Positions 6,474 through 49,599 are shown, counted from the first letter of the stretch. The stretch is DNA of 64,000 nt from an uncultured Gammaproteobacteria bacterium (GCA_964566225.1 CAZMHV010000002.1:81934-145933), one strand, 5' to 3'. Notes: generated by a model not told the origin, from the letters alone. Numbers and translations are program-made.

Positions 6474-7152
6474 TATGGATTTGCGAGTACTCTACGAAGA
6501 TAATCATATTATTGCTGTGTATAAACCCTCTGGCATGCTCGTGCAGGGGGATCATTCTGGCGACTCAACACTTATGGATGAGGTGAAGTATTATCTCAAA
6601 CAAAAGTATGACAAGCCAGGCAATGTATTTCTCGGCATGGTACACCGCCTTGATCGTCCGGTCAGTGGTATTGTTTTGTTTGCCAAGACGAGCAAGGGGG
6701 CATCGAGACTCTCAGAACAGTTTCGCACACACAGCATTCAAAAAATCTATCATGCACTGGTTTTGGGTACTCCAAAATTGCCCACAGGAACCCTCATAAA
6801 TTACCTCAAAAAGGATGCTGACAAAAATTTTGTACGGGTGTATGATACTCCTACTCCAGATGCGCTCCGGGCTGAGCTGGATTATGAAGTGGTTTCGTCT
6901 CATGGTGGTAGATCGATCTTGAAAGTTGTTCTCAAAACTGGTCGTCCTCACCAAATTCGTTCGCAGCTTGCCCATATTGGGTGTCCTATTGTGGGTGACG
7001 TAAAATATGGTGCTCCAGAAGAACGGGAAGTAACATCACATGGTGAAAAGCATAGTAGTATTTCACTGTGTGCTACCTCGGTTATGTTTAAATTGGCTAC
7101 CCAAGAAGAATATAAATGTATTGAAATTCCCATTCCATCGGAGTGGGGCTAA
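6466..7152 (+). CDS. RluA-family pseudouridine synthase (no S4 domain)
   Basis: HRLDRPVSGIVLFAKT catalytic Asp motif. Confidence 0.8.
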   Translation: MVNMDLRVLYEDNHIIAVYKPSGMLVQGDHSGDSTLMDEVKYYLKQKYDKPGNVFLGMVHRLDRPVSGIVLFAKTSKGASRLSEQFRTHSIQKIYHALVLGTPKLPTGTLINYLKKDADKNFVRVYDTPTPDALRAELDYEVVSSHGGRSILKVVLKTGRPHQIRSQLAHIGCPIVGDVKYGAPEEREVTSHGEKHSSISLCATSVMFKLATQEEYKCIEIPIPSEWG

Positions 7153-7671: not shown

Positions 7672-8862
7672 ATGAACTTGTACGAATTTGAAGGAAAAAA
7701 TATTTTTGAAAAATATGGAATAAAAATTCCACGTGGTGTGGTGGTGCGCCGCGATGATAATTTTATTGCCAAATATAGTGAACTTGGACTCACTGATGTT
7801 GTTGTGAAAGCACAAGTTCTTTCTGGAAAGCGTGGCAAGGGCGGGGGAATTAAGTTTGCTTCATCAGACGAAGAAGTACAAAAGGCCTGTGCTGAAATTT
7901 TTGCCATGGAAATTCGAGGGCAGTATGTGGCGGCTATTCGTATTGAAGAAAAATTATCAATTGCGGAAGAACACTATCTTTCTATTACGTACGATACAAA
8001 TCGTAAACAGCCAGTTTTGATTTACAGTCGTGATGGGGGAATGGATATTGAAGATGTCCCTGAAGAAAAAATTGTAAAACAAAATTTGGATATTCAAAAA
8101 GAAATGATTGAAAGTGAAATTCCTTTTGCACAAAATTTGTGGAATTGTTTTTTGAAAGAAGATACACGGGTGGTGGAAATTAATCCACTCGTGAAAACAA
8201 CTTCGGGTGAGTGGATCGCCGCAGATGCCAAAATTGCGATCGATGATGATGCATTTTACAGGCATGAAGACTGGAAAGCTTTGGAGCCTCGTACTATGAT
8301 GGGACGACTCCCAACTGATCGTGAAAATGATGCCAAAAAAATTGATGAAGGGGAAGCGTATTATCGTGGAACCGCAGGAAAATATATTGAAATGGATGGC
8401 AATATCGCTATTCTCTTTTCTGGTGGTGGTGCGAGTATTGCCAATATGGATGCCCTCATGAAAGCCGGTCTTACCCCTGCCAATTACACAGAATATTCAG
8501 GAAATCCTCCTCGTGAAAAAGTCCATGCACTTGCCAAGGTGGTTCTGAGTAAACCAGGTCTTCAGGGCCTGTGGATTGCCGGAGGTGTGGCAAATTTTAC
8601 CAATGTATCAGAAACCTTTCATGGAATTGTTGATGCACTTGATGAATTGAAACCAACCTATCCAATTGTGGTGCGACGTGCAGGACCATTTGAAAAAGAG
8701 GGAATGGAATTGATGAAAGAATGTGCAAAAAGAAATAATTTACACATGAAATTTTTTGGGAAAGAAACGTCAATGAGTGATACTGCTGAAATTTTGGCAA
8801 AAGCAGTAAAAGAAAGTATTCCTTTTGAACAATCCGATGAATGGCCTATTTATTGGCCATAA
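7672..8862 (+). CDS. sucC: succinyl-CoA synthetase beta-subunit-like ATP-grasp protein (alternatively AclB / citryl-CoA synthetase large subunit)
   Basis: MNLYEFEGKNIFEKYGI N-terminus; ATP-grasp plus CoA-ligase domain; 396 aa. Confidence 0.75.
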   Translation: MNLYEFEGKNIFEKYGIKIPRGVVVRRDDNFIAKYSELGLTDVVVKAQVLSGKRGKGGGIKFASSDEEVQKACAEIFAMEIRGQYVAAIRIEEKLSIAEEHYLSITYDTNRKQPVLIYSRDGGMDIEDVPEEKIVKQNLDIQKEMIESEIPFAQNLWNCFLKEDTRVVEINPLVKTTSGEWIAADAKIAIDDDAFYRHEDWKALEPRTMMGRLPTDRENDAKKIDEGEAYYRGTAGKYIEMDGNIAILFSGGGASIANMDALMKAGLTPANYTEYSGNPPREKVHALAKVVLSKPGLQGLWIAGGVANFTNVSETFHGIVDALDELKPTYPIVVRRAGPFEKEGMELMKECAKRNNLHMKFFGKETSMSDTAEILAKAVKESIPFEQSDEWPIYWP

Positions 8863-8880
8863 TTGTAATAAATTTGTTGT

Positions 8881-9396
8881 ATGAAAAAATATTTTCTTAT
8901 TCTTTTGTTTTTTGTGGGAGTGACACTGAGTATATTTTTTGGTGTTCGTTTTCAAAAAGAAAATGCTGTTACACGCGTAGAAAATCAAGAACTCTTTGAA
9001 CAAATTTTGATGAATCCTTTTGCCGGAGGAGTAAGTGATATTCAAGGATTTAAAAACCAAAAAGGAAAGTCTGATACATATTTTAAATTTCGTGTTACGA
9101 ATGAACAAAAAGAAGTATTGTTGAAGCTGCATGAATATAAAAAAATCGACTGTACCAATGAAGCCGTGTTGTCAAAGTTGCTTGCACCAGAAAAAACAAA
9201 AAACATTGTAGAAGGATCAACTTCTTTTTGGAATGTAAGTGAAGTTGAAAATAAAGTTTGTTATGCAACTTTTTTGTTCACTGCATCTGGAATTGAAGGA
9301 AGGTTGTATTCAAATAATTTGAGACAACGCGCACAAAGTGAGATGGTAATTGACGAAAAAAATAACGTGGTGTATTTTCATGAATCAGGAATATAA
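8881..9396 (+). CDS. hypothetical membrane-anchored protein
   Basis: N-terminal TM helix; no recognisable motif; sits between the sucC-like and sucD-like genes. Confidence 0.4.
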   Translation: MKKYFLILLFFVGVTLSIFFGVRFQKENAVTRVENQELFEQILMNPFAGGVSDIQGFKNQKGKSDTYFKFRVTNEQKEVLLKLHEYKKIDCTNEAVLSKLLAPEKTKNIVEGSTSFWNVSEVENKVCYATFLFTASGIEGRLYSNNLRQRAQSEMVIDEKNNVVYFHESGI

Positions 9397-9405
9397 AAAT
9401 TTTGT

Positions 9406-10302
9406 ATGTCTATTTTGCTCCAACCCAATACACAAGTACTTATCCAGGGGATGACTGGTAAAGAAGGTCAAAAAGCAGCGAAAGCTATGCTGGATTATGG
9501 CACACAAGTAGTATGTGGTGTCACTCCCAATAAAGGTGGACAAGAAGTCGAAGGAAGGCCTATTTTTAACTCTGTGGGTGAGGCAAAAGCTCAATTTCCA
9601 GAATTATCTGTGTCTGCCGTATATGTGCCTCCCTTTGCTGCCAAGGCTGCAATTTTGGAAGCCATTGAAAATGATATAAAACTTATCAATATTATTGTTG
9701 AGCGGATTCCTATCCAAGATACGGCGTACTGTTTGGCGGCGGCACGTGAACGTGGTGTACAAATTTTAGGACCAAGTTCACTTGGGTTTATGATTCCGGG
9801 GGTAGGCCGCATTGGTGTCGTCGGTGGACCACTTGAATTGGCCAATCAAGTATTTCAATCTGGGAGCATTGGTGTCATTTCTCGCTCTGGTGGCATGACC
9901 AATGAAATTTCTTGGCAAATTCGCAAAGCAGGCATGGGCCAAAGTGCTGCCGTGCATGTGGGAGGGGACTTACTCATGGGAACCACTTATGCAGATTTAC
10001 TTCGTTTATTTGAAAAAGATGATGCCACGAAAGGTGTTGTGCTTTTTGGTGAACATGGGGGAAGTTATGAATTTGAAATTGTAGAAGCGATTCAAAAGAA
10101 AGAATATACGAAGCCACTTGCGATTTATATTGGTGGCAAGTTTGCCAACTCTTTGCCCGAGGGTATGAATATTGGTCATGCTGGAGCGATTGTGGAGCGG
10201 GGCAAGGGTGCTGCAGAAAAAGAGAAGGCGCTCAGTGATGTTGGTGTTATGATTGCAGAGCGATATGAAGATTTAGTTACTTTAATTCAACCCTTTGCTT
10301 AA
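9406..10302 (+). CDS. sucD: succinyl-CoA synthetase alpha-subunit-like CoA-binding protein
   Basis: CoA-binding Rossmann N-terminus (LIQGMTGKEGQ) and a His-loop region. Confidence 0.75.
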   Translation: MSILLQPNTQVLIQGMTGKEGQKAAKAMLDYGTQVVCGVTPNKGGQEVEGRPIFNSVGEAKAQFPELSVSAVYVPPFAAKAAILEAIENDIKLINIIVERIPIQDTAYCLAAARERGVQILGPSSLGFMIPGVGRIGVVGGPLELANQVFQSGSIGVISRSGGMTNEISWQIRKAGMGQSAAVHVGGDLLMGTTYADLLRLFEKDDATKGVVLFGEHGGSYEFEIVEAIQKKEYTKPLAIYIGGKFANSLPEGMNIGHAGAIVERGKGAAEKEKALSDVGVMIAERYEDLVTLIQPFA

Positions 10303-16549: not shown

Positions 16550-16558
16550 AAAAAATTG

Positions 16559-16631
16559 TGCGCCCAGATGGCTTCGAACCATCGACCCCAACGTTATAAG
16601 CGTTATGCTCTAACCCCTGAGCTATGGGCGC
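16559..16631 (-). tRNA. tRNA-Ile (anticodon UAU)
   Basis: Reverse complement GCGCCCATAGCTCAGGGGTTAGAGCATAACGCTTATAACGTTGGGGTCGATGGTTCGAAGCCATCTGGGCGCA: 7-bp acceptor, D-loop with GG, anticodon loop CTTATAA, T-loop TTCGAAG. Confidence 0.75.
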
Positions 16632-35275: not shown

Positions 35276-35359
35276 GCTCAGGTGGCGAAATTGGTAGACG
35301 CACTACCTTGAGGTGGTAGCGCTCGCAAGGGCATGGAGGTTCGAGTCCTCTCCTGAGCA
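35276..35359 (+). tRNA. tRNA-Leu (anticodon GAG)
   Basis: GCTCAGG acceptor, 3-bp D-stem, anticodon loop TTGAGGT, long variable arm, T-loop TTCGAGT, 3' CCTGAGCA. Confidence 0.8.
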
Positions 35360-35363
35360 CGAA

Positions 35364-35403
35364 ATAAAGAAGTACCTTTTGGTGCTTCTTTATTTTGTTT
35401 TTT
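35364..35403 (+). terminator. rho-independent terminator after tRNA-Leu
   Basis: aataaagaag…cttctttatt stem then ttgttttttg. Confidence 0.6.
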
Positions 35404-35509
35404 GTGATGAGGGTTCGAACTTGGGAAGGGTGAAACCGAGAGGTTTCACTTGCTGAGGAGGGGGTTTGGGGAACCCGAAGGTTCCCCAAAGAGCCCGCAG
35501 GGCGAGTGA

Positions 35510-35527
35510 GAGTCCTCTCCTGAGCAC
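35510..35527 (+). repeat. 18-bp exact direct repeat of the tRNA-Leu 3' end (att-like)
   Basis: gagtcctctcctgagcac at 35343-35360 (inside the tRNA) recurs at 35510-35527. Confidence 0.8.
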
Positions 35528-35701
35528 AGTAAAAAAATTGCTAGAAATAGCAATTTTTTTTATTTTGTAGACTTATTTGACTTGACAGAAGCATAAAGCT
35601 GTGATATTTTCTGTTATTGCTTTGGTTTGTACCTATGCATGACCAATGGTGGCCGTGCATAGTGCGAACGAAACGCGATAACTGCTGAGTGAGGTAATCA
35701 G

Positions 35702-36415
35702 ATGCTTCAGGAATTTTTGAAGAATGTCGAACTGTTGTTCATGGGGCGTGTCCCCATGGTCCTGGTCTACTACCTGTGCCCCCTGCAGGCCTATGACGCC
35801 AAGAAGGCCGAATGGCTCTGCTCTGAGCGGGGCTACAAGTCGGACTTCGGCCCGAACGCCAAGCTCATCACGGTGCTCCAGGGTTTCAACGTCTTCCTGT
35901 ACGTCACCAATCCGGGACGTCTCATCACGCAGCTGCGCGGGTTCCCCCTCGTGGCCGCGTCGGATCTCAACAAGCAGGGGCGCCCCGTGAGCATGGTGAA
36001 GTTTGGCCAGCACATCGAGGTCGGCGTTCGCCCGTTGATTCCTGCATCCGCAGCAGAGATCAGCGCCGACGTCGAGGCTGCCTTCGACTCCACCCATGAG
36101 CCGCCCCATGAGTTGTCTCTCGATGAACTCTTTGACGTCGACGATGGTGGTGATCCTCCGTCCTTGGCAGACCACCCGATCGACACCACCCTCGGTGGGA
36201 TGGGGGAGCTCAGTGACATCACCAGTGTGCGACGCACCCTGGGTCAGGACTTCTCCGGGGGCGACGAAATCTCGGCCTTCGACAATCCCCCGGGCACTCA
36301 GCCCGTCATCGACTTGTCGGCGATCGGGGTGTCCCACGAGGATCCCGCCGCTTCGGTGGAGGTCGAGCTCGAGTCTCTGGTCGGAGAGAATGGGGGTTCC
36401 CGTCCAGGGGACTGA
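35702..36415 (+). CDS. hypothetical protein (high-GC island gene 1)
   Basis: Plus-frame GC3 ~80% identifies this as the coding frame, not the overlapping 35633..36484 minus ORF; acidic disordered C-terminus. Confidence 0.5.
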   Translation: MLQEFLKNVELLFMGRVPMVLVYYLCPLQAYDAKKAEWLCSERGYKSDFGPNAKLITVLQGFNVFLYVTNPGRLITQLRGFPLVAASDLNKQGRPVSMVKFGQHIEVGVRPLIPASAAEISADVEAAFDSTHEPPHELSLDELFDVDDGGDPPSLADHPIDTTLGGMGELSDITSVRRTLGQDFSGGDEISAFDNPPGTQPVIDLSAIGVSHEDPAASVEVELESLVGENGGSRPGD

Positions 36416-36483
36416 CCTGTTCACGACCTCTCCGAGGTCACCAGTGAGCCGCGCCTCAATAAGAGAGGTCGCACGCACGCTCA

Positions 36484-36547
36484 CCCAATGCCGTCCGCAC
36501 TGTGTATTGTTACTAAGAATATACAGTAAGGAGGTTTCGGCATTGGG
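36484..36547. repeat. nested inverted repeat (palindromic element)
   Basis: cccaatgccg…cggcattggg, a 10-bp perfect inverted repeat enclosing actgtgtat…atatacagt. Confidence 0.6.
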
Positions 36548-36552
36548 TGAAA

Positions 36553-36589
36553 ACAGGGAATGATACTTGTGTCATTCCCTGTTTTTTTA
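36553..36589 (+). terminator. rho-independent terminator
   Basis: acagggaatga-tacttgtg-tcattccctgt-ttttttt. Confidence 0.8.
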
Positions 36590-36675
36590 TCTTGACAAAG
36601 CAAAATTTTTATGATATACACACAACGCATCCAAATTCTGGATGAGTCTTTTTACCACTGGTCATATCAAAGGCG

Positions 36676-38139
36676 GTGATTCGCATGAACTCGTTCGCTC
36701 GTGTTGTGTCGCGGATTTCTTTTGTCGTCGGCATTCTCTATCTCGGCTATCTGGCCGTGGATGAGTGGTTCGTCCCGAGCTCGAAAAAGGCGGAGGTCAT
36801 CAAGGACCTGAAACTTGATCAGGAAGACCTCTGTTTTGCCTTGGCAAAGGCCGCTGGCAAAACCCTCAATTCGAACAAGGGAACTTCGATCTCTGTGAGC
36901 CGGTTTGGTGGGGTTCAGACGGACTCCCTGGTCTTTTTGGCCAAGAAGTGGACTGCTTTTTCGGCGGCTGACTGGGTTGCTTGGGACTATGTTCCGGGCA
37001 AGGGGTGCGCCATCAGCTATGTGATGGGGAAGGTGGGTACCCCACTTGAACCTGAAGACGTGGTCATTCGTATTGAAGGACCTCTCGATACTGTGTGGGA
37101 CGAGTTCGCCTCGGTCTCAGGCCATTCCGCCCTTCCTACCTTGGCCAATTCTCAGTTCATGCTCTTGGCAACTGGTGGGGAATGGACCCCTGATGTGTTT
37201 GCTCAGGCGGCACGCCAGAACTACACTGGTGTGATCGAGGCACTTTCCCTGGTTGAGAATGATGCCATCTTCAATCGTCGGGTCACGTTGTACAACAACG
37301 CGCTCCAAGTGATTGATGAATGGGTGCATGCCTGGCGTTCGTATCAGATGAACCATCGAGCGCAACAGGTGGGGATTCTCTTGCTGGCGTTGCTTGTCGA
37401 ATTCATCTGGTTCTACTTCCGTGTTCGGGCGTATTCGCAGGGCATTGTCTGGCTGGTGGTCCACTTTTTTTCGGGCTGTGAAGCCTCAAGCAAGAATCAA
37501 GTGGTCAAGCTGTCCAAGAAAGATGTCCCTGCCCCTGCTGTGCAGGAGGTTCTTCCTTCTGGCCCCAAGCCCTTGACTCTGTCCGATTTGCTCTCGCGGG
37601 CATCTTCGGTCGGAGGAGAAGTGCTTCGCGGTCTCGTTGCTGCATCGTTGGGATCGTCTCCTACGGCAGACTCCCTTCGTGTGGCCAACGACAAAGTCTC
37701 GGCGGTTCAGGGTCATGGCGATTTGCTCACCTCGGCTCGTCGTTTCGGCGAGGATACCGTTGCCGAGTGCATGGACTATCTGTTTGAGGGCCAACTGGGC
37801 TCTGCACAGCAGCTCATCCGTCAGAAAGAGTACCAGCGCATCAGCGGGGATCTTCGGACGGCTTCGTTCCAGCTCGGTGTCGAGGCTCAGGTGGATGAAC
37901 TTCTCTATCAAGGATCGATTGAGGAGGCTCGCAAGGTCATTGAGTCAGCCCGAGCTCGAATCGGGTTTCAGGCTCAAATCCAGAACCTTCGAGCCTGGGT
38001 GAAAGACCACTCTCGCGATCTGGATCCTCATCTGCTCATTCGAGTGGCGTCGTTCGATCCGAAGGCTCCCGGGGCTCACAAAGAGTTGAATCGTCTCGAG
38101 CGAGAGGTTCAGGCCGTCAAGACCCGATTGGGTCTCTGA
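36676..38139 (+). CDS. hypothetical membrane protein (high-GC island gene 2)
   Basis: 487 aa; N-terminal TM and a central double TM; GC-rich codon usage (tcg/ctc/gcc). Confidence 0.5.
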   Translation: MIRMNSFARVVSRISFVVGILYLGYLAVDEWFVPSSKKAEVIKDLKLDQEDLCFALAKAAGKTLNSNKGTSISVSRFGGVQTDSLVFLAKKWTAFSAADWVAWDYVPGKGCAISYVMGKVGTPLEPEDVVIRIEGPLDTVWDEFASVSGHSALPTLANSQFMLLATGGEWTPDVFAQAARQNYTGVIEALSLVENDAIFNRRVTLYNNALQVIDEWVHAWRSYQMNHRAQQVGILLLALLVEFIWFYFRVRAYSQGIVWLVVHFFSGCEASSKNQVVKLSKKDVPAPAVQEVLPSGPKPLTLSDLLSRASSVGGEVLRGLVAASLGSSPTADSLRVANDKVSAVQGHGDLLTSARRFGEDTVAECMDYLFEGQLGSAQQLIRQKEYQRISGDLRTASFQLGVEAQVDELLYQGSIEEARKVIESARARIGFQAQIQNLRAWVKDHSRDLDPHLLIRVASFDPKAPGAHKELNRLEREVQAVKTRLGL

Positions 38140-38207
38140 AGTCTCGCACTGTTTTCAACTCCAACCATTTTTAACAACAACAAACAAGGAGGGAAAGGGA
38201 GGGGAAA

Positions 38208-38240
38208 CAAAAACAGTCCAGAGTATGGACTGTTTTTGTT
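38208..38240. terminator. bidirectional hairpin terminator
   Basis: acagtcc-agagtat-ggactgt flanked by an A-run on one side and a T-run on the other; serves the island gene (+) and rnpB (-). Confidence 0.7.
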
Positions 38241-38660
38241 TGTCTTTTCTTGCTATAAGCCGAATTTTGTGTCCCTTGCGGGCGACGATCATTTCTCTTG
38301 ATCACACATTGCTGGGTGATTCTAGCGAGCGAACTTTTCGCATTTCTCCGCTTCGGTGCGCTGGCTAACAAGTGTTCGCCAAGCGTAACGAAGTGAAGTC
38401 GCGCTGCTCTTTCTCCAAGTAGGGCTTACCACGATTGCACATTTCTGTGCAACGAGTAGAGTAGCCTTGCGACTTCTCTACACTTTTCACCTTTCACCAC
38501 CTTGCGGTGGCTAGTATTGTCTCTGTGGTGCTATCCCGCTCACAAACTTCACAGTTTGGAGGGTGGGCGTTACCCACTACTTTTTTTCCCGGCTTGCACC
38601 AGGGGAGTTCGGACTTTCCTCATTCTGGCAAGCCAGAAAGCGATCATCTACAAGAAAAGA
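38241..38660 (-). ncRNA. rnpB: RNase P RNA (bacterial type A-like)
   Basis: Minus strand shows GAGGAAAGUCCGAACUCC (P4 5' strand), GGGUAACGCCC, ACAGAGACAA, GGUGAAAGGUGAAAAG and ACAAAAUUCGGCUUAU (P4 3' strand, compensatory with the 5' strand). The ends form P1: UCUUUUCUUG / CAAGAAAAGA. Confidence 0.8.
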
Positions 38661-38799
38661 CCGCCCCAGAGTACCATTTTTTGGCCTTTTTGTCAAGTTG
38701 ACTTTTTGGCTTTTTTCAGATAATATTTATGGTATCTGAATATTTATTCAGAACACCCACTTGTAAAATTCAAGTCTGGGTAAAAATGCCTGTCACCGT

Positions 38800-40218
38800 A
38801 TGAAACGATTTGAAATCTTTTTCATGGTTTTTCAAGTACCACTTGATATCCTCATGCTTTTGTTTGCAGGAGTTTCTGGATACTTGCTTCGTTTTTCAGG
38901 TTGGGCGGTCGCGCTCAAGCCAGTTGCCTTTGGTCTTACTTTTTCAGAGTACATCTCTCTTGTTTTGTTTGTTATTCCGGTGTGGCTTGTCACATTTTCT
39001 TTGCTTGGACTCTATACACCAGATGTGAACAGAAAGTTTGTAGCAGAGGTTACAAAAATTTTTTTGGCATCGCTCGCAAGTTTGTCCGTAATTGCTCTTT
39101 ACATTTTGTTTACTCAGCAACTTTTTGATTCTCGATTTTTGGTATTGGCCAGTTTTTCTTTTGCTTGTCTTTATATTTCTCTTGGTAGAATGTTTATGCG
39201 TGGACTGCGTGTACTTTTTTACCGTTCAGGTATTGGACGTCGCCGGGTCGTACTTATTGGAGAAGGTGAAATTGCCGATTCTATTGAAAATATTTTAACC
39301 AGTCGTTCAGCACTTGGGTATGAAGTCATTGAACGAGTAAAGCATTTTTCTGACTCCCTAAAAAATAAAATTAGCAGACAAAAACCCGATGAAATTATTT
39401 TTGCAAACCCTCGTTCACATGAACAAGAAACACTGCAAGCCATTGACTTTGCCAATGAAAAACACATTGTATTCAAATATTCAGCTGATTTATTTTCAAC
39501 CTATTCTACCAATGTAAACATGTATCCACTTGGTGGAATTCCTATTATTGAACTCAAACGAACACCACTTGATGGGTGGGGAAGAGTTGTCAAACGAGTG
39601 TTTGATATTGTGGTTGGACTCATAATGATTGTTGTTTTGAGTCCAATTATGATACTTGCTGCCCTGCTTATTTTTATTGAAACTGGGAGTCCTATTATTT
39701 ATAAAAATGAACGAGTGGGACTTCGTGGACAAAAATTTTTTACGCTTAAATTTCGTTCCATGTATCAAAAAGATTCCACAGGAAGTCAGTTTGGTGAAAA
39801 TGGAAAAAAAGCGCAGCAAAAAGAAAAACAACTTATCAAAAAGCAAAGTATCAAAGCTGGACCTATTTATAAAATTGCCAATGATCCTCGTGTGACACCT
39901 TTTGGCAGTTTTATTCGTCGTTTCAGTATTGATGAAATGCCACAATTTTTCAATGTCATTGTCGGTGACATGAGTATTGTTGGCCCACGTCCACACCAAC
40001 CACGAGAAGTAGCTCGTTACGAAAAAGAACACAAAAAAGTATTTACTCTCAAACCTGGTATTACTGGTTTGGCACAAATTTCTGGACGATCAGACTTGAG
40101 TTTTGAAGAAGAACATCGGCTCGATGTTTTCTATATTGAAAAATGGACTCTCCTTCTCGATATCGTCATTTTTCTCAAAACTCCATTTGTCCTTTTTAAA
40201 AAACGAAAGGCATTATAA
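38800..40218 (+). CDS. polyprenyl-phosphate sugar phosphotransferase (WbaP/bacterial sugar transferase family)
   Basis: N-terminal TM helices and conserved C-terminal catalytic domain (…PGITGLAQISGRSDLSFEEEHRLDVFYIEKWTLLLD…). Confidence 0.85.
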   Translation: MKRFEIFFMVFQVPLDILMLLFAGVSGYLLRFSGWAVALKPVAFGLTFSEYISLVLFVIPVWLVTFSLLGLYTPDVNRKFVAEVTKIFLASLASLSVIALYILFTQQLFDSRFLVLASFSFACLYISLGRMFMRGLRVLFYRSGIGRRRVVLIGEGEIADSIENILTSRSALGYEVIERVKHFSDSLKNKISRQKPDEIIFANPRSHEQETLQAIDFANEKHIVFKYSADLFSTYSTNVNMYPLGGIPIIELKRTPLDGWGRVVKRVFDIVVGLIMIVVLSPIMILAALLIFIETGSPIIYKNERVGLRGQKFFTLKFRSMYQKDSTGSQFGENGKKAQQKEKQLIKKQSIKAGPIYKIANDPRVTPFGSFIRRFSIDEMPQFFNVIVGDMSIVGPRPHQPREVARYEKEHKKVFTLKPGITGLAQISGRSDLSFEEEHRLDVFYIEKWTLLLDIVIFLKTPFVLFKKRKAL

Positions 40219-40283
40219 AAAATAAAATACAAAAAAGTGAAAACACCTTGCAGAAAATATTTGAGTTGATGACCTAGTGAAGT

Positions 40284-41396
40284 ATGAAGATTGCACTTGT
40301 CCATGATTATCTTGCTCAAGACGGGGGAGCAGAAAGAGTTTTAAAAGCGTTTCATGAAATCTGGCCCGAAGCGCCAATTTTTGTTTTATTTCACCAAAAG
40401 GGGAGTGTTGCTGGTTTTGATACCGCAACCATACACGAGTCATTTTTTCGTTTTTTACCATTTGGTCGAACTCACTACCAGTGGTATTTACCATGGATGC
40501 CCTTGGCTACCGAACGTCATAATTTGCATGAATTTGATGTGGTACTTTCTTCTACCAGTGCTTTTGCCAAAGGTGTGCTTACTCGTCCGAACACTTTGCA
40601 TATTTCGTATTGTCATACACCCACCCGATACTTGTGGACGGATACGCATGAATATATTGCAGAGCTTCGATATAATGGTCTTATAAAATCGTTGTTACCT
40701 CCTGTATTACACCGCTTGCGTATTTGGGATAAGGCAAGTGTTGACAGAGTCGATCACTTTATTGCCAACTCCAAAACAGTAGGCAAACGTATTTCCAAAT
40801 ACTATCGTGCACCCAGTGATGTTATCTATCCACCGGTAGATACTCATAATTTTTTTGTGAGTGAAACAGTTGAAGATTATTTTTTGACTGGTGGACGTAT
40901 TGTTCCATACAAACGATTTGATCTTGTGATTGAAGTTTTCAACCGTTTAGGTAAGCCTCTCAAAATTTTTGGCACAGGTCCAGATTTGGATCGACTTCAA
41001 AAACATGCGAAGCCAAATATTGAGTTTTTGGGCAGAGTGAGTGATGAACAAAAAGCATCTCTTATGAGTAAAGCTCAGGCATTTGTTCATCCTCAAATAG
41101 AAGATTTGGGTATAACTCCCCTCGAATCTATGGCCTCAGGTCGTCCAGTGATTGCTTACGGTGTTGGTGGCGTAACCGAAACTGTCGTGCCTCACAAAAC
41201 AGGTATTTTTTTTCAACATCAAACCTGGGAGTCATTGCTGGAGGCTATTTTGGATTTTGACAAAACCAAGTGGGATACCCATGCTATTCGTGAACATTCA
41301 ATCTTGTTTAGTGCTTCTACTTTTAAAAAAAGAATTCGTGATTATGTTGAAAGTAGGTATGATGAATTTAACGAAACAATGGACTATTTGAACTGA
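40284..41396 (+). CDS. glycosyltransferase family 4
   Basis: GT4 fold; E…GITPLESMASGRPVIA motif. Confidence 0.8.
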   Translation: MKIALVHDYLAQDGGAERVLKAFHEIWPEAPIFVLFHQKGSVAGFDTATIHESFFRFLPFGRTHYQWYLPWMPLATERHNLHEFDVVLSSTSAFAKGVLTRPNTLHISYCHTPTRYLWTDTHEYIAELRYNGLIKSLLPPVLHRLRIWDKASVDRVDHFIANSKTVGKRISKYYRAPSDVIYPPVDTHNFFVSETVEDYFLTGGRIVPYKRFDLVIEVFNRLGKPLKIFGTGPDLDRLQKHAKPNIEFLGRVSDEQKASLMSKAQAFVHPQIEDLGITPLESMASGRPVIAYGVGGVTETVVPHKTGIFFQHQTWESLLEAILDFDKTKWDTHAIREHSILFSASTFKKRIRDYVESRYDEFNETMDYLN

Positions 41397-41478
41397 TATT
41401 GGGAACATTTCTCAAACTCTAAAAAATTATTTATAAAGAAATTGAGCACGTTTAATTTTTTTGCTCAGTCACTTACTT

Positions 41479-42648
41479 ATGAATATTGGCATTGATATCA
41501 ATCCACTTCTCACTTCACCCCGGACGGGAGTTGGTGAATATACCTTTGAACTGCTCAATGCTTTGTTTACCCTTGATAAAAAAAATCAATATTTTCTTTT
41601 TTCCAACTCATTTTCCAAAAAACACGACGACCAAATTTGGAGTCAAAAAAATGTTCACTGTATTCATACTCGTGTCCCAAATAAAATTTTTCATCTGGTG
41701 ATGCAACTTACCAAACGACCCTACATCGATGAGCTTTTGGTAAAACAATATGAAAAAAAGAATAAAATAAAAATTGGTCACCTGGATGTGTTTTTTTCTC
41801 CTAATATTGGTTTTTCTTCACTTTCCAAAAAATGTAAAAAAATTCTTACGGTGCATGATGTTTCATTTGAATTATTTCCTAAGTGTTTTTCTTTCAAAAT
41901 GCGTCTGTGGCATAAAATTTTAGATCCCAAAAAACAGTGTGAACAAGCACAGAATATCTTTGTCCCATCAGAGAATACCAAACAAGATCTCATGCTCTTG
42001 TATAATATTTCTCCAGAAAAAATTTCTGTGAGTCCGCTTGGTCTCAGTTCGTGTTTTGCCTCGGTTGATGTTTTTGATCCTGAACACTTACGTCTGGTGA
42101 AAGACAAATACCATCTCCCGAGCAAGTATATTTTCTTTTTAGGCACGGTAGAACCACGTAAAAATATTTTATTTTTACTCCAGGCTTTTGCTTTATTTCA
42201 AAAACAATTTCCGGTACAAGCAAGTGAATATACCTTGGTTATCGCAGGTAACAATGGTTGGAAATACAAACCAATACAAAAGAGTATTGCAGCGACTCCA
42301 CAGGTTCAATATATTGGATATGTAGAAGAACGTGATAAACCTCTTTTGTATCACGGTGCCAGCATGTTTGTGTATCCAAGTTTGTACGAAGGATTTGGAC
42401 TCCCAGTACTCGAAGCTATGGCCAGTGGTGTACCCGTTATTACGAGCAATCGTTCCTCGCTTCCTGAAATAACAAGTGGGGCTGCGTATTTGATTGATCC
42501 ACGCAATATTCAAACTCTCGTAACCGCTTTTGTACGGCTCAGCGATTCTGAGTCGCTAAGGCATGCGCATGTATCCAAAGGACTCAACGAAGCACAAAAA
42601 TTTTCGTGGCAAAAATCAGCAGAACAGTTTTTGAAAAATATTTATTAA
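41479..42648 (+). CDS. glycosyltransferase family 4
   Basis: EGFGLPVLEAMASGVPVITS. Confidence 0.8.
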   Translation: MNIGIDINPLLTSPRTGVGEYTFELLNALFTLDKKNQYFLFSNSFSKKHDDQIWSQKNVHCIHTRVPNKIFHLVMQLTKRPYIDELLVKQYEKKNKIKIGHLDVFFSPNIGFSSLSKKCKKILTVHDVSFELFPKCFSFKMRLWHKILDPKKQCEQAQNIFVPSENTKQDLMLLYNISPEKISVSPLGLSSCFASVDVFDPEHLRLVKDKYHLPSKYIFFLGTVEPRKNILFLLQAFALFQKQFPVQASEYTLVIAGNNGWKYKPIQKSIAATPQVQYIGYVEERDKPLLYHGASMFVYPSLYEGFGLPVLEAMASGVPVITSNRSSLPEITSGAAYLIDPRNIQTLVTAFVRLSDSESLRHAHVSKGLNEAQKFSWQKSAEQFLKNIY

Positions 42649-42654
42649 AATACT

Positions 42655-43779
42655 ATGCGTATTGGTATTGACGCACGCATGATGGGTAAAGGATTTGGAC
42701 TGGCTCGGTACACCGAGCAACTTATTGTGCATTCTTTACAAGTTGATACGGTCAACGAATTTGTTTTGTTTTTACGCAAAGAAAATTGGGATCAGATTCC
42801 AGATACCACACCTCGAGTCAAAAAAGTACTTGCAGATATTCCCTGGTATAGCCTACAAGAACAGTTGCAACTGATTGGCATTATCAAAAAAGAAAAGGTC
42901 GATCTCATGCATTTTCCACATTGGAATATTCCATATTTTTATCGCCAGCCGTATGTGGTCACCATTCATGATCTTATCATGTTTCACTTTCCACGGGCAC
43001 AGGCTACCACACTTGGGCCTGTGAAATTTTGGGTCAAAGATATGGCGCATCGGCTGCTTTTGCGTACAATATCCAAAAGTGCCAAACATATTTTTGCTAC
43101 GAGTGAATTTACCAAGAGTGATATCCACGCAACATTACATGTGCCTTTAGAAAAAATGACGGTCACGTATCAGGCACCGTTTGAGGTCATTCAAAACATG
43201 GACGACATAAACCATGAATCCCTTCTCGCCAAATATAATATTACCAAGCCATATATACTCTATGTTGGTGCAGCCTATCCACACAAAAATCTCAGAGGTC
43301 TGATTGATGCATGGAAATTGTATGAACAAAAATATGGTTCAACCCATCAGTTGGTGTTGGTTGGTAAAGAAAATTATTTTTATTCGGAAATAAAAAAGTA
43401 TCAGCAAGCAGTGGCACCAGAGAGTCATGTTTTGTTTACAGGTTTTGTTCCTGACGAAGAACTTTCGGTACTGTATGAACATGCTTCTTTGTACGTATTT
43501 CCGAGTCTCTACGAAGGTTTTGGTCTTCCTCCCCTGGAAGCCATGGTACATGGCGTACCAGTTGTCTCATCAAATCAGAGTTGTCTTCCTGAAGTCCTGG
43601 GCAATGCAGCACTGTATTTTGATCCCCAAAACAGAGATGAGATGGTTGAAAAAATTCACTCTGGTCTCACCGATATATTACTTCAAGAAAATTTGAAAAT
43701 ACATTCAAAAAAAATTCTGCAAAAATACTCCTGGGAAACACTTGCCAGACAGACGATAAATGTCTACCTCTGCCCTTGA
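42655..43779 (+). CDS. glycosyltransferase family 4
   Basis: EGFGLPPLEAMVHGVPVVSS. Confidence 0.8.
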   Translation: MRIGIDARMMGKGFGLARYTEQLIVHSLQVDTVNEFVLFLRKENWDQIPDTTPRVKKVLADIPWYSLQEQLQLIGIIKKEKVDLMHFPHWNIPYFYRQPYVVTIHDLIMFHFPRAQATTLGPVKFWVKDMAHRLLLRTISKSAKHIFATSEFTKSDIHATLHVPLEKMTVTYQAPFEVIQNMDDINHESLLAKYNITKPYILYVGAAYPHKNLRGLIDAWKLYEQKYGSTHQLVLVGKENYFYSEIKKYQQAVAPESHVLFTGFVPDEELSVLYEHASLYVFPSLYEGFGLPPLEAMVHGVPVVSSNQSCLPEVLGNAALYFDPQNRDEMVEKIHSGLTDILLQENLKIHSKKILQKYSWETLARQTINVYLCP

Positions 43780-43832
43780 TTTTTTCTGCGTTTAGTGATA
43801 CAATAGCCTCCACTTAACTTCTTTTATTCTCT

Positions 43833-44561
43833 ATGTCTGGAATTTTTCAAACCGTTCTCTATCAGCCAATTTTCAATGGTTTTGTAGCATTGTATAACCT
43901 TATACCAGATGTTGGTATTGTTATTTTGATTGTCACCATACTCTTAAAGGTGGTAACCTATCCTTTGACTGACAAATCTATCAAAGCACAAAGGTCACTC
44001 AGTGCTCTGCAACCCAAAATGGAAGATTTGAAAAAAAAGTACAAAGACGATCAGCAAACTTTGGCGCAAGAAACCATGAAGTTGTACAAGGAACATAAAG
44101 TAAATCCACTTGGCTCGTGTCTGCCTTTGCTCATTCAGCTTCCTATTTTTATTGCACTGTACCAAGTTTTACAAAATGGACTTACGGCTAATGACTTTCA
44201 ATTGCTCTATTCATTTGTGCCGAGCCCAGGAAGTATCAATACCATAACACTTGGATTTTTTGACCTAGTAAAACCAAACGTTGTCTTGGCAGTACTTGCT
44301 GGTGCGTCTCAGTTTATGCAAGCCAAAACTATGATGCGCAAACACCCACCAAAAGCCGCAGGCGAAGGTGGTAAAGACGAAGATATGGCAGCTATGATGA
44401 ATAAACAAATGCTCTATGTCATGCCGGTGCTTACGGTGATTATTGGTCTCAAGCTTCCTGGTGGTTTGTCACTCTACTGGTTTTTGTCGACTATTTTAAC
44501 GGCAGCGCAACAATATTGGGTTGCCAAAAAAGAAAAACAGACTGATGTTGTAGTGTTATAA
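43833..44561 (+). CDS. yidC: membrane protein insertase YidC (short form)
   Basis: …VTYPLTDKSIKAQRSLSALQPKMEDLKKKYKDDQQ…HKVNPLGSCLPLLIQLPIFIALY. Confidence 0.85.
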   Translation: MSGIFQTVLYQPIFNGFVALYNLIPDVGIVILIVTILLKVVTYPLTDKSIKAQRSLSALQPKMEDLKKKYKDDQQTLAQETMKLYKEHKVNPLGSCLPLLIQLPIFIALYQVLQNGLTANDFQLLYSFVPSPGSINTITLGFFDLVKPNVVLAVLAGASQFMQAKTMMRKHPPKAAGEGGKDEDMAAMMNKQMLYVMPVLTVIIGLKLPGGLSLYWFLSTILTAAQQYWVAKKEKQTDVVVL

Positions 44562-44566
44562 TCAAT

Positions 44567-44866
44567 ATGCGTATTGCTTTCAAACAGCTCAAAAAAATGA
44601 AAGTGGAAACGCTTTCTGGTACCAACCTTGGCAAAGTGCATGATATTATTTTCGATACAGAAGGTCAAAATATTATTCAGTATATAGTAAAACTCGGGAC
44701 TCTTGCTACCGAAGAAAATTTAATCAGTCGTGATCAGATTGTTCGATTTGAAGACAAAAAAGTGATTGTTTATGATACGGCTGTAAAGAAAAAAGACCGT
44801 GATATGGAAAAAATCATTCCTTTAGTTCCACAGGTTGACTCCAACCTTGCCATGCGACAAGAGTAA
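44567..44866 (+). CDS. PRC-barrel domain protein (YlmC/YmxH-like)
   Basis: LSGTNLGKVHDIIFDTEGQNIIQYIV… PRC-barrel pattern. Confidence 0.5.
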   Translation: MRIAFKQLKKMKVETLSGTNLGKVHDIIFDTEGQNIIQYIVKLGTLATEENLISRDQIVRFEDKKVIVYDTAVKKKDRDMEKIIPLVPQVDSNLAMRQE

Positions 44867-44871
44867 AAACA

Positions 44872-44906
44872 AAAAAGAAGATCCTTCATGGACCTTCTTT
44901 TATTTT
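44872..44906 (+). terminator. rho-independent terminator
   Basis: agaagatcc-ttcatg-gaccttctt-ttatttt. Confidence 0.6.
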
Positions 44907-44935
44907 ACGTCAAAATACGTTACACTTGAACCTAT

Positions 44936-45871
44936 ATGGACATGTTTCACATTTCTCTCAAAAAAACCTTGGCCTACTTTGATTTATTTTCTTGCCCCAT
45001 TACCAAGGAAGAGTTATATACATATCTTTTCTCTCCACAAGAAGAAATTTCTTTTGATACGTTTGTGCGTCGTCTTCATACCCTTGAGGCTTCCAAAGAA
45101 AAGTGTTTTGAAACCTCGTGTGGGTATTATTTTTTACCAGCGAAACAAGAAACTGTGACCATGCGTGAACGTCGTGTTTGGTATATTGAAAAAAAATTAA
45201 AAATTGCCAAACGAGCGGCTCGGCTTTTACGTTATATTCCATTTGTCAAAGCCTTTTTTGTATGCAATCAAATACAAATTGGTGTGACTCAAAAAAGTGA
45301 TATTGATGTGCTTATTGTGGTAAAGCAGGGGAGAATGTTTTTTACTCGATTGTGCATTACATTTTTGCTTGGTCTTTTTCGCCTTCGTCGTGGAAAGAAA
45401 AAAGTAACCGATCGGATCTGTTTGAGTTTTTATGTCACAGACAATGCGTTAGATTTTTCTTCTCTCCAAATAGGGGAGCCTGATATTTATTTTACCTATT
45501 GGCTCGCAACACTCATTCCAGTCTATGATCCAGAGGACTCCTTGCAAAAAATATTTTCAAACAACATTTGGGCAACAAAAAATTTACCACATGCCTTTGA
45601 GAGCGTACCCCTTGGCAGTGATTGGAAAGTAACAAATAATATGTTTAGTCTTTTTATAAAACAGTGGCTTGAAAAAATACTGCAGGGCAAGTGGGGGGAC
45701 AAGCTTGAAGCTGCCACCAAAAAATTTCAGCTCAAACATATGCAGGGCAATAAGTCGAGTGTCCAAAATCAAGACTCTCGCGTTGTTATCTCAGACACTT
45801 TATTAAAATTTCACGAAAACGACCGCCGAGACCTGTTTCGACAAGAGTGGGAAAAGCGGTGGAAGATATAA
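44936..45871 (+). CDS. hypothetical protein (possible nucleotidyltransferase fold)
   Basis: …QKSDIDVLIVV… resembles the Pol-beta-type NTase hG[GS]/DxD region; otherwise unrecognised. Confidence 0.35.
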   Translation: MDMFHISLKKTLAYFDLFSCPITKEELYTYLFSPQEEISFDTFVRRLHTLEASKEKCFETSCGYYFLPAKQETVTMRERRVWYIEKKLKIAKRAARLLRYIPFVKAFFVCNQIQIGVTQKSDIDVLIVVKQGRMFFTRLCITFLLGLFRLRRGKKKVTDRICLSFYVTDNALDFSSLQIGEPDIYFTYWLATLIPVYDPEDSLQKIFSNNIWATKNLPHAFESVPLGSDWKVTNNMFSLFIKQWLEKILQGKWGDKLEAATKKFQLKHMQGNKSSVQNQDSRVVISDTLLKFHENDRRDLFRQEWEKRWKI

Positions 45872-45880
45872 AAAATATTC

Positions 45881-47185
45881 ATGAACAGTATCTTTGATAA
45901 AAAAAAATTACCTCAAAAGTTACATTTTTTTCTCAGTGCACTTTTGTTTCTCCTCCCATGGCAAACCATTCTCATCCTTCAAAAATGGGAACTCGGCACC
46001 ATTGGTATTTTTGGATTTGAAATTTTATTTTGGATTGTTGCCGCAGTATTTTTTGTCTGGTATTTTCAAAGTAAAAAACAACCGACAAAAATGAGTTGGC
46101 TCTTCGTAACTTCTTTTGTTTTTTTGGGCTTTTGTTTTCTCTCTATTCTTTGGTCACCTGAGCCAATGGTTGCTTTTTTTCAAAGCCTTCGAATCACTGA
46201 GGGTTTTTTACTTTTATATATATTCACGGTTGTTCCGTTTGATACATACAAGGCCGCAGGTTGGTTTATTGCAGGATCAACGGTGCAAGCACTCCTTGGA
46301 ATCTATCAATTTCTCACTCAGTCCACAGTGAGTTTCAAATGGCTTGGACTTGTTTCCCATCCAGTGCTGGAGACAGGGACGTCGGTTATTCAAAGTCTTG
46401 AAGTAGGCAGGTGGCTCCGCGCATATGGTGCATTTCCACACCCCAATGTACTTGGTGGATACCTCGTTGTTGGAATTATGTGTACAACACTTTTTCTTTT
46501 CTCAAAAAATATTCAAAATAAAAAAATAATTTTTTTGAGTCTGTTCATTCAAACTGCAGCACTTTTTTTCACCTTTAGTCGTTCGGCGTGGATTGCTACG
46601 GTACTTTGGTTTGGTGGACTCGTTGCATACTCTGTGGTGAAAAAATACAAAAAACAAAACTCTCTCTTAATCAAAAATATTCCTCACATTGTCTTTTCTT
46701 TTTTTCTATTCATCAGTATTGTATCCCTGTTCTATTTTCCTCTTGTCAAAACTCGTATTAGAGGCGAATCCTATCATGAAGTTCGTTCCATTGAAGAACG
46801 CATTGGTGGCCCTAAGTTTGCTTTGAATCTTTGGAAAACCTCGCCCCTCATAGGAGTAGGAGTAGGCAACTATGTTCCAGCCATGTCTGAAGTTTCTCCA
46901 AATCAAGAACGGTGGGTATACGAACCAGTCCATGTTGTCCCGCTTTTAATGCTCACGGAGCTTGGAATTTTCGGCTTCAGTGTATTTCTCCTTGTTGGTT
47001 TTTTCTTTGCAAAGAATATTCCTTTGGGTGGTATTTTTATGCTGGTAGGCTTTTCTGTGCTTCCATTGTTTATGCTCGATCACTATTTATATTCACTCCC
47101 AGGAGGGCTATTTCTCTCGGGGGTTATTCTTGGGCTTTTTCCAAAATTTTTCCACACTTTGTCCCCACCTCAGGAACAAAACTAG
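45881..47185 (+). CDS. O-antigen ligase/polymerase family membrane protein (Wzy_C-like)
   Basis: About 10 TM helices; conserved …FSRSAWIA… loop region. Confidence 0.65.
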   Translation: MNSIFDKKKLPQKLHFFLSALLFLLPWQTILILQKWELGTIGIFGFEILFWIVAAVFFVWYFQSKKQPTKMSWLFVTSFVFLGFCFLSILWSPEPMVAFFQSLRITEGFLLLYIFTVVPFDTYKAAGWFIAGSTVQALLGIYQFLTQSTVSFKWLGLVSHPVLETGTSVIQSLEVGRWLRAYGAFPHPNVLGGYLVVGIMCTTLFLFSKNIQNKKIIFLSLFIQTAALFFTFSRSAWIATVLWFGGLVAYSVVKKYKKQNSLLIKNIPHIVFSFFLFISIVSLFYFPLVKTRIRGESYHEVRSIEERIGGPKFALNLWKTSPLIGVGVGNYVPAMSEVSPNQERWVYEPVHVVPLLMLTELGIFGFSVFLLVGFFFAKNIPLGGIFMLVGFSVLPLFMLDHYLYSLPGGLFLSGVILGLFPKFFHTLSPPQEQN

Positions 47186-47409
47186 TTTTTTGGCCAGTTT
47201 TTGACCTTTTTTTCGAGTCTTTGAAATCATTGACAAATACCCCCAAAAGTGCGACAATACGAGTCCAGAAGGCAAAAGAAAGGTCTCCGGCCCAGGCGTT
47301 CGCTCAACGATTTCGTGTCATGACAGGCATCACGATATCTCCATGAGACGGCGCCTTGAGCTGGGTACCTTTTTGAGGCTTTCTTGTGGAAAAAGAAGGG
47401 ATATTCCTC

Positions 47410-47439
47410 TTGACAATTTGACCCTAGAAATGGTATAAA
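47410..47439 (+). promoter_or_regulatory. sigma70-like promoter of groES-groEL
   Basis: TTGACA - 18 nt - TATAAA, immediately 5' of the CIRCE-like inverted repeat. Confidence 0.55.
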
Positions 47440-47440
47440 A

Positions 47441-47467
47441 TTATCACTCTCAATATGGGAGTGATAA
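47441..47467 (+). promoter_or_regulatory. CIRCE-like HrcA operator (variant)
   Basis: TTATCACTC-N9-GAGTGATAA versus consensus TTAGCACTC-N9-GAGTGCTAA; upstream of groES. Confidence 0.7.
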
Positions 47468-47607
47468 TTTATTTTATCTCAGTAAAAATAAAGCTATATT
47501 ATATATAATTTATTTTTACTTCGATAGTATCTTCGTGTAAACATTTCACGAAAAAAGAAAATGTCTACACGAATCATAAGTTTTTAATTCATATAATTTT
47601 TATTCAT

Positions 47608-47895
47608 ATGAACATCAAACCACTTGGAAATAGAGTTCTTGTTGAACTCAAGAAAAAAGAATCAACCACTGCTTCTGGCATCGTGCTTCCTGAAAGTGGA
47701 GACAAACAAAAAGCCGAAGGTGTTGTGGTAGCCGTAGGACCAGGCAAAATACTTGAAAATGGTGAACGTACCAAGATAGAAGTTACTGTTGGTCAAACCG
47801 TGCTTGTGAAATCATGGGGCGGAGACGAAGTCAAAATGAATGAAAAAGAGTATAAAATTTTTGATGCCGAAGATATTTTGGGCATTGTTGAATAA
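47608..47895 (+). CDS. groS: co-chaperonin GroES
   Basis: MNIKPLGNRVLV…; 95 aa. Confidence 0.95.
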   Translation: MNIKPLGNRVLVELKKKESTTASGIVLPESGDKQKAEGVVVAVGPGKILENGERTKIEVTVGQTVLVKSWGGDEVKMNEKEYKIFDAEDILGIVE

Positions 47896-47949
47896 CAAAC
47901 CATTGCTTTTCCTCGTTTTCACTTTACCTCAACTCATAAATAAATATAA

Positions 47950-49599
<1,650 letters not shown>

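Follow-up and report, generated by a model that had tools for sequence, protein, structure and literature searches.

Anatomy and composition of the locus

The 64,000-nucleotide stretch of DNA analysed here (GCA_964566225.1 CAZMHV010000002.1:81934–145933, one strand, deposited under an uncultured Gammaproteobacteria bacterium; referred to as the window) carries at positions 35276–38240 two open reading frames (ORF1 and ORF2) of high GC content, enclosed between the genes for tRNA-Leu(GAG) and RNase P RNA (rnpB). An initial annotation, made from the sequence alone, had described this segment either as an island integrated into the 3' end of the tRNA gene or as an assembly chimera. The parts that it listed, namely tRNA-Leu(GAG), an exact 18-bp repeat of the tRNA end, the two ORFs, and a terminator abutting rnpB, could all be recovered by ARAGORN, Rfam, ORF calling, and searches for repeats and terminators. 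The locus comprises the following features:

35276–35360, plus strand: tRNA-Leu(GAG), intact, no encoded CCA (ARAGORN; Rfam RF00005, 52.8 bits)
35343–35360, plus strand: repeat copy 1, the last 18 nt of tRNA-Leu(GAG) (exact repeat search)
35359–35398, plus strand: intrinsic terminator directly 3' of the tRNA, hairpin of 18 pairs followed by a T-run (terminator prediction; inverted repeat)
35399–35529, plus strand: hairpin-rich module of ~130 nt, 56% GC, with repeat copy 2 as its tail (homologues, RNAalifold, covariance model)
35510–35527, plus strand: repeat copy 2, a copy of the T-loop, T-stem, and acceptor 3' strand of tRNA-Leu (exact)
35531–35560, unstranded: A-run, 13-bp perfect hairpin, and T-run right after repeat copy 2, a bidirectional-type terminator (inverted repeat; sequence by eye)
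35582–35610, plus strand: predicted ORF1 promoter, TTGACA-17-TATTTT with TG extension, class TTGACA-N14-TGNTA (pattern)
35702–36415, plus strand: ORF1, 237 aa, GC at third codon positions (GC3) 0.79 (ORF calling)
36416–36586, plus strand: ORF1 3' untranslated region, GC-rich to ~36500, with a 13-bp inverted repeat and then a terminator
36549–36586, plus strand: ORF1 terminator, hairpin and T-run (prediction)
36592–36620, plus strand: predicted ORF2 promoter, TTGACA-N14-TGaTATACA (pattern)
36676–38139, plus strand: ORF2, 487 aa from GTG (484 aa from ATG at 36685), GC3 0.62 (ORF calling)
38205–38241, unstranded: 16-bp perfect hairpin terminator, common to the convergent ORF2 and rnpB, abutting rnpB (prediction; inverted repeat)
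38240–38659, minus strand: RNase P RNA class A (rnpB), conserved right flank (Rfam RF00010, 165.7 bits)
38672–38696, minus strand: predicted rnpB promoter TTGACAAAAAGGCCAAAAAATGGTA, same class as the ORF1 and ORF2 promoters (pattern)

The GC content amounts to 56.1% at 35702–38139, compared to 39.1–39.3% elsewhere in the window. ORF1 has an overall GC fraction of 0.62 and ORF2 of 0.55. Measured against the 44 other ORFs of the window (mean GC3 0.305, standard deviation 0.044, maximum 0.41), their GC3 values correspond to z = 10.9 and 7.1, and the earlier description of both genes as compositionally foreign is borne out. The first and second codon positions are also elevated in GC, and both proteins contain more G, A, and R and less K, I, and N than those of the host. 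With these data, we could establish that ORF1 and ORF2 have the base and amino acid composition of genomes far above host GC. The high-GC DNA begins ~280 bp 3' of tRNA-Leu(GAG) and falls into two blocks (~35640–36500 and ~36676–38140), divided by a 175-bp stretch of 36% GC (36501–36675) that contains a terminator and a promoter. Two figures of the initial annotation need adjustment: the GC3 of 75–80% given for both genes applies to ORF1 but not to ORF2, and the insert, although GC-rich, has a GC content of ~56% instead of ~58% and is not uniform.

In the ORF1 3' untranslated region, a perfect 13-bp inverted repeat (TCACCCAATGCCG at 36481–36493 and CGGCATTGGGTGA at 36538–36550) lies just 5' of the terminator and straddles a drop in GC from 64% to 35%. 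It might form a stem in the RNA or mark a recombination junction. The ORF1 3' region is 94.6% identical in L001 (L-numbers, L001–L147, denote the contigs or loci of related strains, lineages, or pattern matches that we compared with the window).

Host lineage and persistence of the insert

The contig is a chromosome of Candidatus Magasanikbacteria (Candidate Phyla Radiation (CPR)/Patescibacteria). When species-representative genomes were scanned with the sugar transferase gene that lies beside rnpB, the matches comprised eleven metagenome-assembled genomes of this group at 57–62% identity. Most of the remaining large ORFs in the window are genes typical of a chromosome, for example those encoding GAPDH, PGK, UvrA, and a release factor.

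L002 and L003, Logan contigs obtained from two separate runs, are 100% identical to window positions 35324–43631 and 35324–38623, respectively. Both span the junction on the tRNA-repeat-ORF1 side as well as that on the ORF2-rnpB side. L001, which comes from a third run and sample, has the same gene order with 93.5% nucleotide identity over window positions 36152–48170. Its layout, with the 3' part of ORF1 followed by ORF2, rnpB, and the sugar transferase gene, covers the internal and right junctions. The synonymous divergence (dS) between the window strain and L001 is 0.149 for ORF2 and 0.104 for the visible part of ORF1, compared to 0.11–0.21 for five flanking genes. Since these values are at or near the range of the flanks, the insert has diverged together with its surroundings, and its acquisition predates the split between the window strain and the ~95%-identical L001 strain. 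The high-GC segment is real and can stay in this genome, and nothing points to mis-binning.

We also observed that the contigs L106 and L108–L110 stop in or right beside tRNA-Leu, and that L002 and L003 begin at window position 35324. Such breaks fit co-occurring strains that have the tRNA in common and different DNA downstream of it.

The gap between tRNA-Leu(GAG) and rnpB is an insertion hotspot

In every relative with a contig that spans the gap (~20 lineages), we found the order histidine kinase, bactofilin, DAGK, tRNA-Leu(GAG), rnpB, sugar transferase. What lies between the two RNA genes differs. The gap is essentially empty in eight lineages (L005, L010–L014, L112–L114, and L141), so that an empty tRNA-Leu site, for which the initial annotation proposed to look in related genomes, does exist. 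L007 carries an Eco57I-type methylase (restriction-modification) and one further ORF, both of low GC, and L008 carries proA, proB, and proC. L107, the closest nonconspecific relative with data (80% DAGK identity, identical tRNA-Leu), contains a normal-GC kinase-like gene and neither the ~130-nt module nor ORF1 or ORF2. Four lineages other than that of the window contain high-GC cargo. L009 has an ORF of 284 aa with GC3 0.74 in a 32% GC genome, L111 has an ORF of 64% GC with a lipoprotein-like start, and L097 has another unrelated ORF. In L115 (6825–10620; also L116), tRNA-Leu is followed, as in the window, by the module, whose tail repeats 16 nt of the L115 tRNA end, and then by a promoter, the cargo, and rnpB; this cargo comprises an OPT oligopeptide transporter gene (GC3 0.80) and ORFs of 176 and 137 aa. 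The high-GC cargo proteins of L009, L111, L097, and L115 showed no homology among each other, to ORF1 and ORF2, or to the element of L142 described below.

The window strain and L001 alone carry ORF1 and ORF2; ~20 other lineages lack them. The suggestion that the same segment might be syntenic in relatives, and hence ancient, is therefore correct at the strain or species level and incorrect for all more distant relatives, including L107. Because the flanks are conserved and the content varies by lineage, the gap between tRNA-Leu(GAG) and rnpB represents a hotspot for insertions that is conserved in Candidatus Magasanikbacteria.

Two further observations concern the surroundings of rnpB. This gene is encoded on the same strand as tRNA-Leu in L004, L005, L012, L013, and L014, and on the opposite strand in the window, L006–L011, and L115. 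Since the strand differs while the flanking order is kept, rnpB must have been inverted locally between lineages. In L006, an ORF of 291 aa with a signal-peptide-like start and a GC fraction of 0.49, compared to 0.38, is located between rnpB and the sugar transferase gene (8900–9775). Cargo can therefore enter on the far side of rnpB as well.

Two orphan genes in separate units

ORF1 and ORF2 constitute two separate single-gene units, each with a predicted strong host-type promoter and its own predicted intrinsic terminator. Transcription is predicted to start near 35617 for ORF1 and near 36627 for ORF2. The promoter class TTGACA-N14-TGNTA occurs only five times in the 64 kb, and these occurrences include the sites at 35582 and 36592 as well as the promoter of rnpB (38696–38672). 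The same class is found upstream of rnpB in L006, L009, and L115. By eye, the ORF2 promoter agrees in 21 of 25 positions with the promoter of the unrelated high-GC ORF that L111 carries in this gap, and TTTTACCACT follows both. Because the two units differ in GC3, the islet may be composite.

The absence of recognizable relatives noted earlier was confirmed. When ORF1 and ORF2 were compared with 5.8 billion indexed proteins, only the two proteins themselves and the L001 orthologue were recovered, and an ORF2 profile searched against 1.84 billion representative proteins found no homologue besides the L001 orthologue. In Pfam, no match to ORF1, ORF2, or an antisense ORF exceeded the threshold, and the two proteins have no family in PHROGs, PADLOC, or NCBIfam. 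Comparison of the islet DNA and proteins with plasmid, phage, and IMG/VR collections (by blastn in the case of plasmids and phages) gave no matches, and a full-text search of the literature returned nothing relevant.

ORF2 shows a ratio of nonsynonymous to synonymous divergence (dN/dS) of 0.47 between the window and L001, compared to 0.03–0.11 in the flanking genes, and its insertions and deletions are all in frame. ORF2 is a fast-evolving yet constrained gene under purifying selection. Hydrophobic segments are located at approximately residues 7–25 and 226–250. The AlphaFold model (mean predicted local distance difference test score (pLDDT) 50) is confident only for a C-terminal all-helical domain (residues 300–487, pLDDT ~85), and a Foldseek search of the PDB with this model found no match under E = 0.1. 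These features suggest a membrane-anchored protein with an N-terminal anchor, an external part of ~200 aa, a second hydrophobic stretch, and a cytoplasmic helical domain. In ORF1, a short N-terminal part precedes a strongly acidic C-terminal half (28 D/E vs 3 K/R) that is predicted to be disordered. The predicted structure has a pLDDT of 40, and over 86 codons of the acidic tail a dN/dS of 0.94 gives no evidence of constraint. ORF1 is probably a small protein that ends in an acidic, disordered tail. As to function, we can only guess at accessory roles at the envelope or in interactions, or at other membrane-associated functions.

Origin of the islet

We consider it probable that the 2.7-kb segment, a genuine islet specific to its lineage, was acquired horizontally into this hotspot and is most likely the leftover cargo of a high-GC integrative element. 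A candidate for such a vehicle is found in L142 (6843–12762; also in L143–L147), where at least 5.8 kb of 58–68% GC lies directly 3' of tRNA-Leu(GAG) (6843–6930) and its terminator in a genome of 38% GC. This element was assembled identically in six datasets. Next to the tRNA it encodes a large serine recombinase of 518 aa (Resolvase and Zn_ribbon_recom domains) that is 23–30% identical to serine integrases of phages and plasmids, and further genes code for a relaxase-like protein (Replic_Relax), a protein like the coupling protein TrwB, and a DnaG/Toprim primase. Its high-GC ORFs are parted by AT-rich intergenic dips of 33–45% GC (8341–8460 and 8821–8940). The element and the window islet have the same insertion site and the same architecture, in which high-GC ORFs alternate with AT-rich control regions (the dip at 36501–36675 in the window). 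Because of this likeness, we judge the units in the window to be DNA of the same sort. On this view, an integrative element of the L142 type, high in GC, would have brought ORF1 and ORF2 to the gap between tRNA-Leu and rnpB; its mobility genes would have been lost afterwards, and the two genes would remain as cargo. Delivery by an element of this type appears to us about as probable as not.

Several observations count against leftover cargo of such an element. The L142 element is seen at its left junction only; its right end is unseen, so integration is shown at one junction only. Comparison of the window islet with L142 and L146 by tblastn and blastn revealed nothing beyond the match of the tRNA end, so the link between ORF1 and ORF2 and this element consists only of position and compositional architecture. 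No att sites or target duplications that bracket ORF1 and ORF2 were found, and no donor can be named for the two genes. The AT-rich host-type promoters that sit flush against the high-GC ORFs would not be expected from the simple transfer of a block.

The main alternative, which we rate as distinctly less probable, requires no mobile element. The space between the two convergent essential RNA genes would simply be permissive, DNA would enter by uptake and by recombination in the conserved flanks, and only foreign genes that gain host promoters and terminators would persist. This explanation accounts well for the diverse cargo between conserved flanks (restriction-modification, proBAC, OPT, orphans), most of it without mobility genes, and for the host-class promoter on each cargo unit. 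The GC3 values of 0.79 and 0.62 are also what separate acquisitions would give. It has more difficulty with the intact, integrase-bearing high-GC element at the same site in L142–L147 and with the recurrence of high-GC cargo in five lineages, a pattern suggestive of one shared vehicle, and it leaves the repeat-bearing module next to the tRNA unexplained.

The 18-bp repeat belongs to a conserved module

The 64-kb window contains two exact copies of GAGTCCTCTCCTGAGCAC (35343–35360 and 35510–35527), the second 167 bp downstream of the first. No further copy with up to 2 mismatches was found in the window, and none in 100 shuffles. The repeat begins in the T-loop and extends past the discriminator base of the tRNA, and this extent is a typical crossover region of integrases that target tRNA genes. 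The initial annotation had taken the two copies as the attL/attR footprint of site-specific integration; in this model, a tyrosine-integrase island entered the 3' end of tRNA-Leu, with ORF1 and ORF2 as its degraded content. An exact repeat far beyond chance, its extent, and the variability of the site among relatives all speak for this model. The position of the genes speaks against it: the two copies enclose only 149 bp, consisting of the tRNA terminator and ~110 nt with two strong hairpins, and both lie to the left of the ORFs. A third copy is missing from the window even when 3 mismatches are allowed in the 15-nt core. Furthermore, the layout of tRNA, terminator, hairpin module, copy of the tRNA 3' end, and terminator recurs in L006, where rnpB follows directly with no cargo in between, and in L097 and L115/L116, where different and unrelated high-GC cargo follows. 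Conversely, L007, L008, L009, and L107 contain cargo without the module. Since the ORFs lie outside the repeat pair, a third copy is missing, and the module occurs without cargo or with other cargo, we assign the repeat to the module and not to the two genes. The repeat is a genuine att-like duplication of the tRNA end, part of a small conserved module and not a border of the islet. As earlier stated, no integrase is left in the window: none is encoded by ORF1, ORF2, or 20 other large ORFs, which are mostly housekeeping genes and include five without a Pfam family. Taken together, we regard the island model as unlikely.

The module itself is an uncatalogued conserved element. In each genome, its tail copies the 3' end of the tRNA-Leu encoded there: it reproduces the T-loop variants GAGT, AAAT, and AAGT, and in L115 it follows the distinct acceptor strand of that genome (CTCGCGC instead of CCTGAGC). 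An RNAalifold consensus comprises 28 pairs, 6 of them with compensatory changes, and retains two hairpins; the z-score of the fold is –3.8. The covariance model R1 recovers five module copies at 119–150 bits and no other among 34 Magasanikbacteria loci. Rfam contains no family for 35399–35529 at the gathering threshold, and at E ≤ 5 the only match is a sub-threshold one, a 27-nt opposite-strand hit to blv_FSE (18.7 bits, gathering 34, E 3.4). A pattern scan of metagenomes returned 22 matches, comprising one true module (L097), 20 cases of unrelated GC-rich RNA, and one unrelated coding-like sequence (L102). Pattern scans of viral sequences gave nothing relevant; one matched just a bare 20-nt hairpin.

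We also considered a tRNA-like minihelix in which GCTGAGGAGGGG would pair with the tRNA-like tail. This proposal was rejected, as the L115 tail tracks the changed acceptor while its partner stays GCTGAGGA; only the part that pairs with CCTCTC is retained. As a separate observation, 20 metagenome sequences (L084–L105 except L097 and L102) carry the 21-nt motif GTGA.A.TCCTCTCCTGAGCA in unrelated high-GC RNA-like sequence that begins GTGCGCCC...GACTTGGAG. By eye, this sequence looks like the 5' end of a group II intron. Finally, the variable arm and T-stem of tRNA-Leu (35321–35338) match a site inside ORF2 (37927–37944) in 16 of 18 positions. We judge this match to be due to chance, because it does not continue into the 18-bp att core.

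In the simplest reading, a miniature site-specific insertion would have left the module behind as a scar flanked by att sites. Another reading, to which we give little credence, is that the module is a working part of a capture site, in which a structured RNA or DNA docking element is combined with a secondary att site. If so, a recombinase supplied from elsewhere or by a transient element would insert promoter-equipped foreign gene units at this position, and tRNA-Leu in Magasanikbacteria would host an integron-like acquisition platform fed by an unsampled high-GC mobile pool. Such a pool, if real, would explain why unrelated high-GC orphans recur at one site in a phylum of 32–45% GC.

We are left with two explanations that can be set aside more readily than the island model. 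That ORF1 and ORF2 are old native genes of Magasanikbacteria, with a high GC content held by selection or by a local mutational bias, would agree with the purifying selection on ORF2 and with the host-type expression signals. This idea is very improbable and largely refuted, given that the ORFs are missing from all relatives beyond the ~95% strain, including L107 with its identical tRNA-Leu, that the searches found no homologues, and that all three codon positions and the amino acid usage are shifted. An assembly or binning artefact, by which a high-GC piece of another organism was joined at the tRNA, might be suspected from the abrupt change in composition and from the frequent breaks of relatives' short-read contigs at tRNA-Leu, and this part of the initial annotation can be discarded, because an independent assembler gave both junctions at 100% identity in two runs (L002 and L003), the diverged strain of a third run (L001) repeats the internal and right junctions in the same layout, dS resembles that of the flanks, and AT-rich rnpB-class promoters and host-type terminators lie inside the segment.

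Relation to known systems

Horizontal-transfer hotspots, as Oliveira, Touchon and Rocha reportedly described in 2017, hold variable cargo between conserved core genes. The locus described here resembles such hotspots, and tRNA-adjacent islets in general, in its conserved flanks (DAGK/tRNA-Leu and rnpB/sugar transferase), its lineage-varying content of atypical composition, and the lack of mobility genes in most occupants. It differs in its very small size (two genes), its location in a reduced CPR genome, and its complete orphan genes. Also unlike in those hotspots, the cargo is repeatedly far GC-richer than the host; mobile DNA is usually AT-richer than its host. With integrase-borne islands in tRNA genes, the window insert shares the position directly 3' of a tRNA, the atypical composition, and the patchy distribution, but it has neither bracketing repeats nor an integrase or remnant of one.

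Elements with large serine recombinases (phiC31/Bxb1-type; actinomycete integrative elements) find a counterpart in L142–L147 at the same site. Serine integrases leave no long direct repeats, and the lack of repeats around ORF1 and ORF2 is in keeping with this. In contrast to such elements, the window contains no recombinase and no homology to L142, and the L142 integrase itself is only 23–30% identical to known ones. The 149-bp stretch between the repeats is reminiscent of cis-mobilisable elements (CIMEs), known from work on integrative and conjugative elements of Streptococcus as att-flanked remnants without an integrase, in that it is noncoding and located between att-like direct repeats at a tRNA 3' end. 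Unlike CIMEs, it is far smaller and no cognate integrase is known. Furthermore, its ~130-nt hairpin architecture is kept with compensatory changes in four distant lineages, which would not be expected of a random deletion remnant. Integron cassette arrays are comparable in that unrelated single-gene units stand in series at a fixed site beside a structured, repeat-bearing element. However, no IntI was found in the window and no repeated attC-like element between the units (no dedicated attC model was run), and each unit has its own predicted promoter and terminator, in contrast to integron cassettes, most of which lack a promoter.

Other observations in the window

Elsewhere in the window, a tRNA-Ile with the anticodon UAU is encoded at 16558–16631 on the minus strand (ARAGORN; Rfam 65.2 bits). 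Most bacteria decode AUA with a lysidine-modified CAU tRNA, and the UAU anticodon is uncommon. At 7672–10302, we found a pair of ORFs with ATP-grasp_2/Citrate_bind and CoA_binding/Ligase_CoA domains. This pair resembles ATP-citrate lyase or succinyl-CoA synthetase and is notable for a reduced CPR genome.

Implications

On present evidence, the islet is ordinary in kind and does not represent a novel type of system. It is mildly unusual in two respects, the recurrence of unrelated high-GC orphans at one site and the uncatalogued module that carries the tRNA end. This module could be examined both as a candidate RNA and as a candidate att site, and the OPT transporter in L115, as a member of a known family, could disclose the donor lineage. 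For a CPR lineage of small genome size, the comparison documents a conserved hotspot at which foreign DNA enters between tRNA-Leu(GAG) and rnpB. A family of elements with 60–68% GC in Patescibacteria of 32–45% GC would inform on the sources from which these episymbiont-like bacteria obtain genes.

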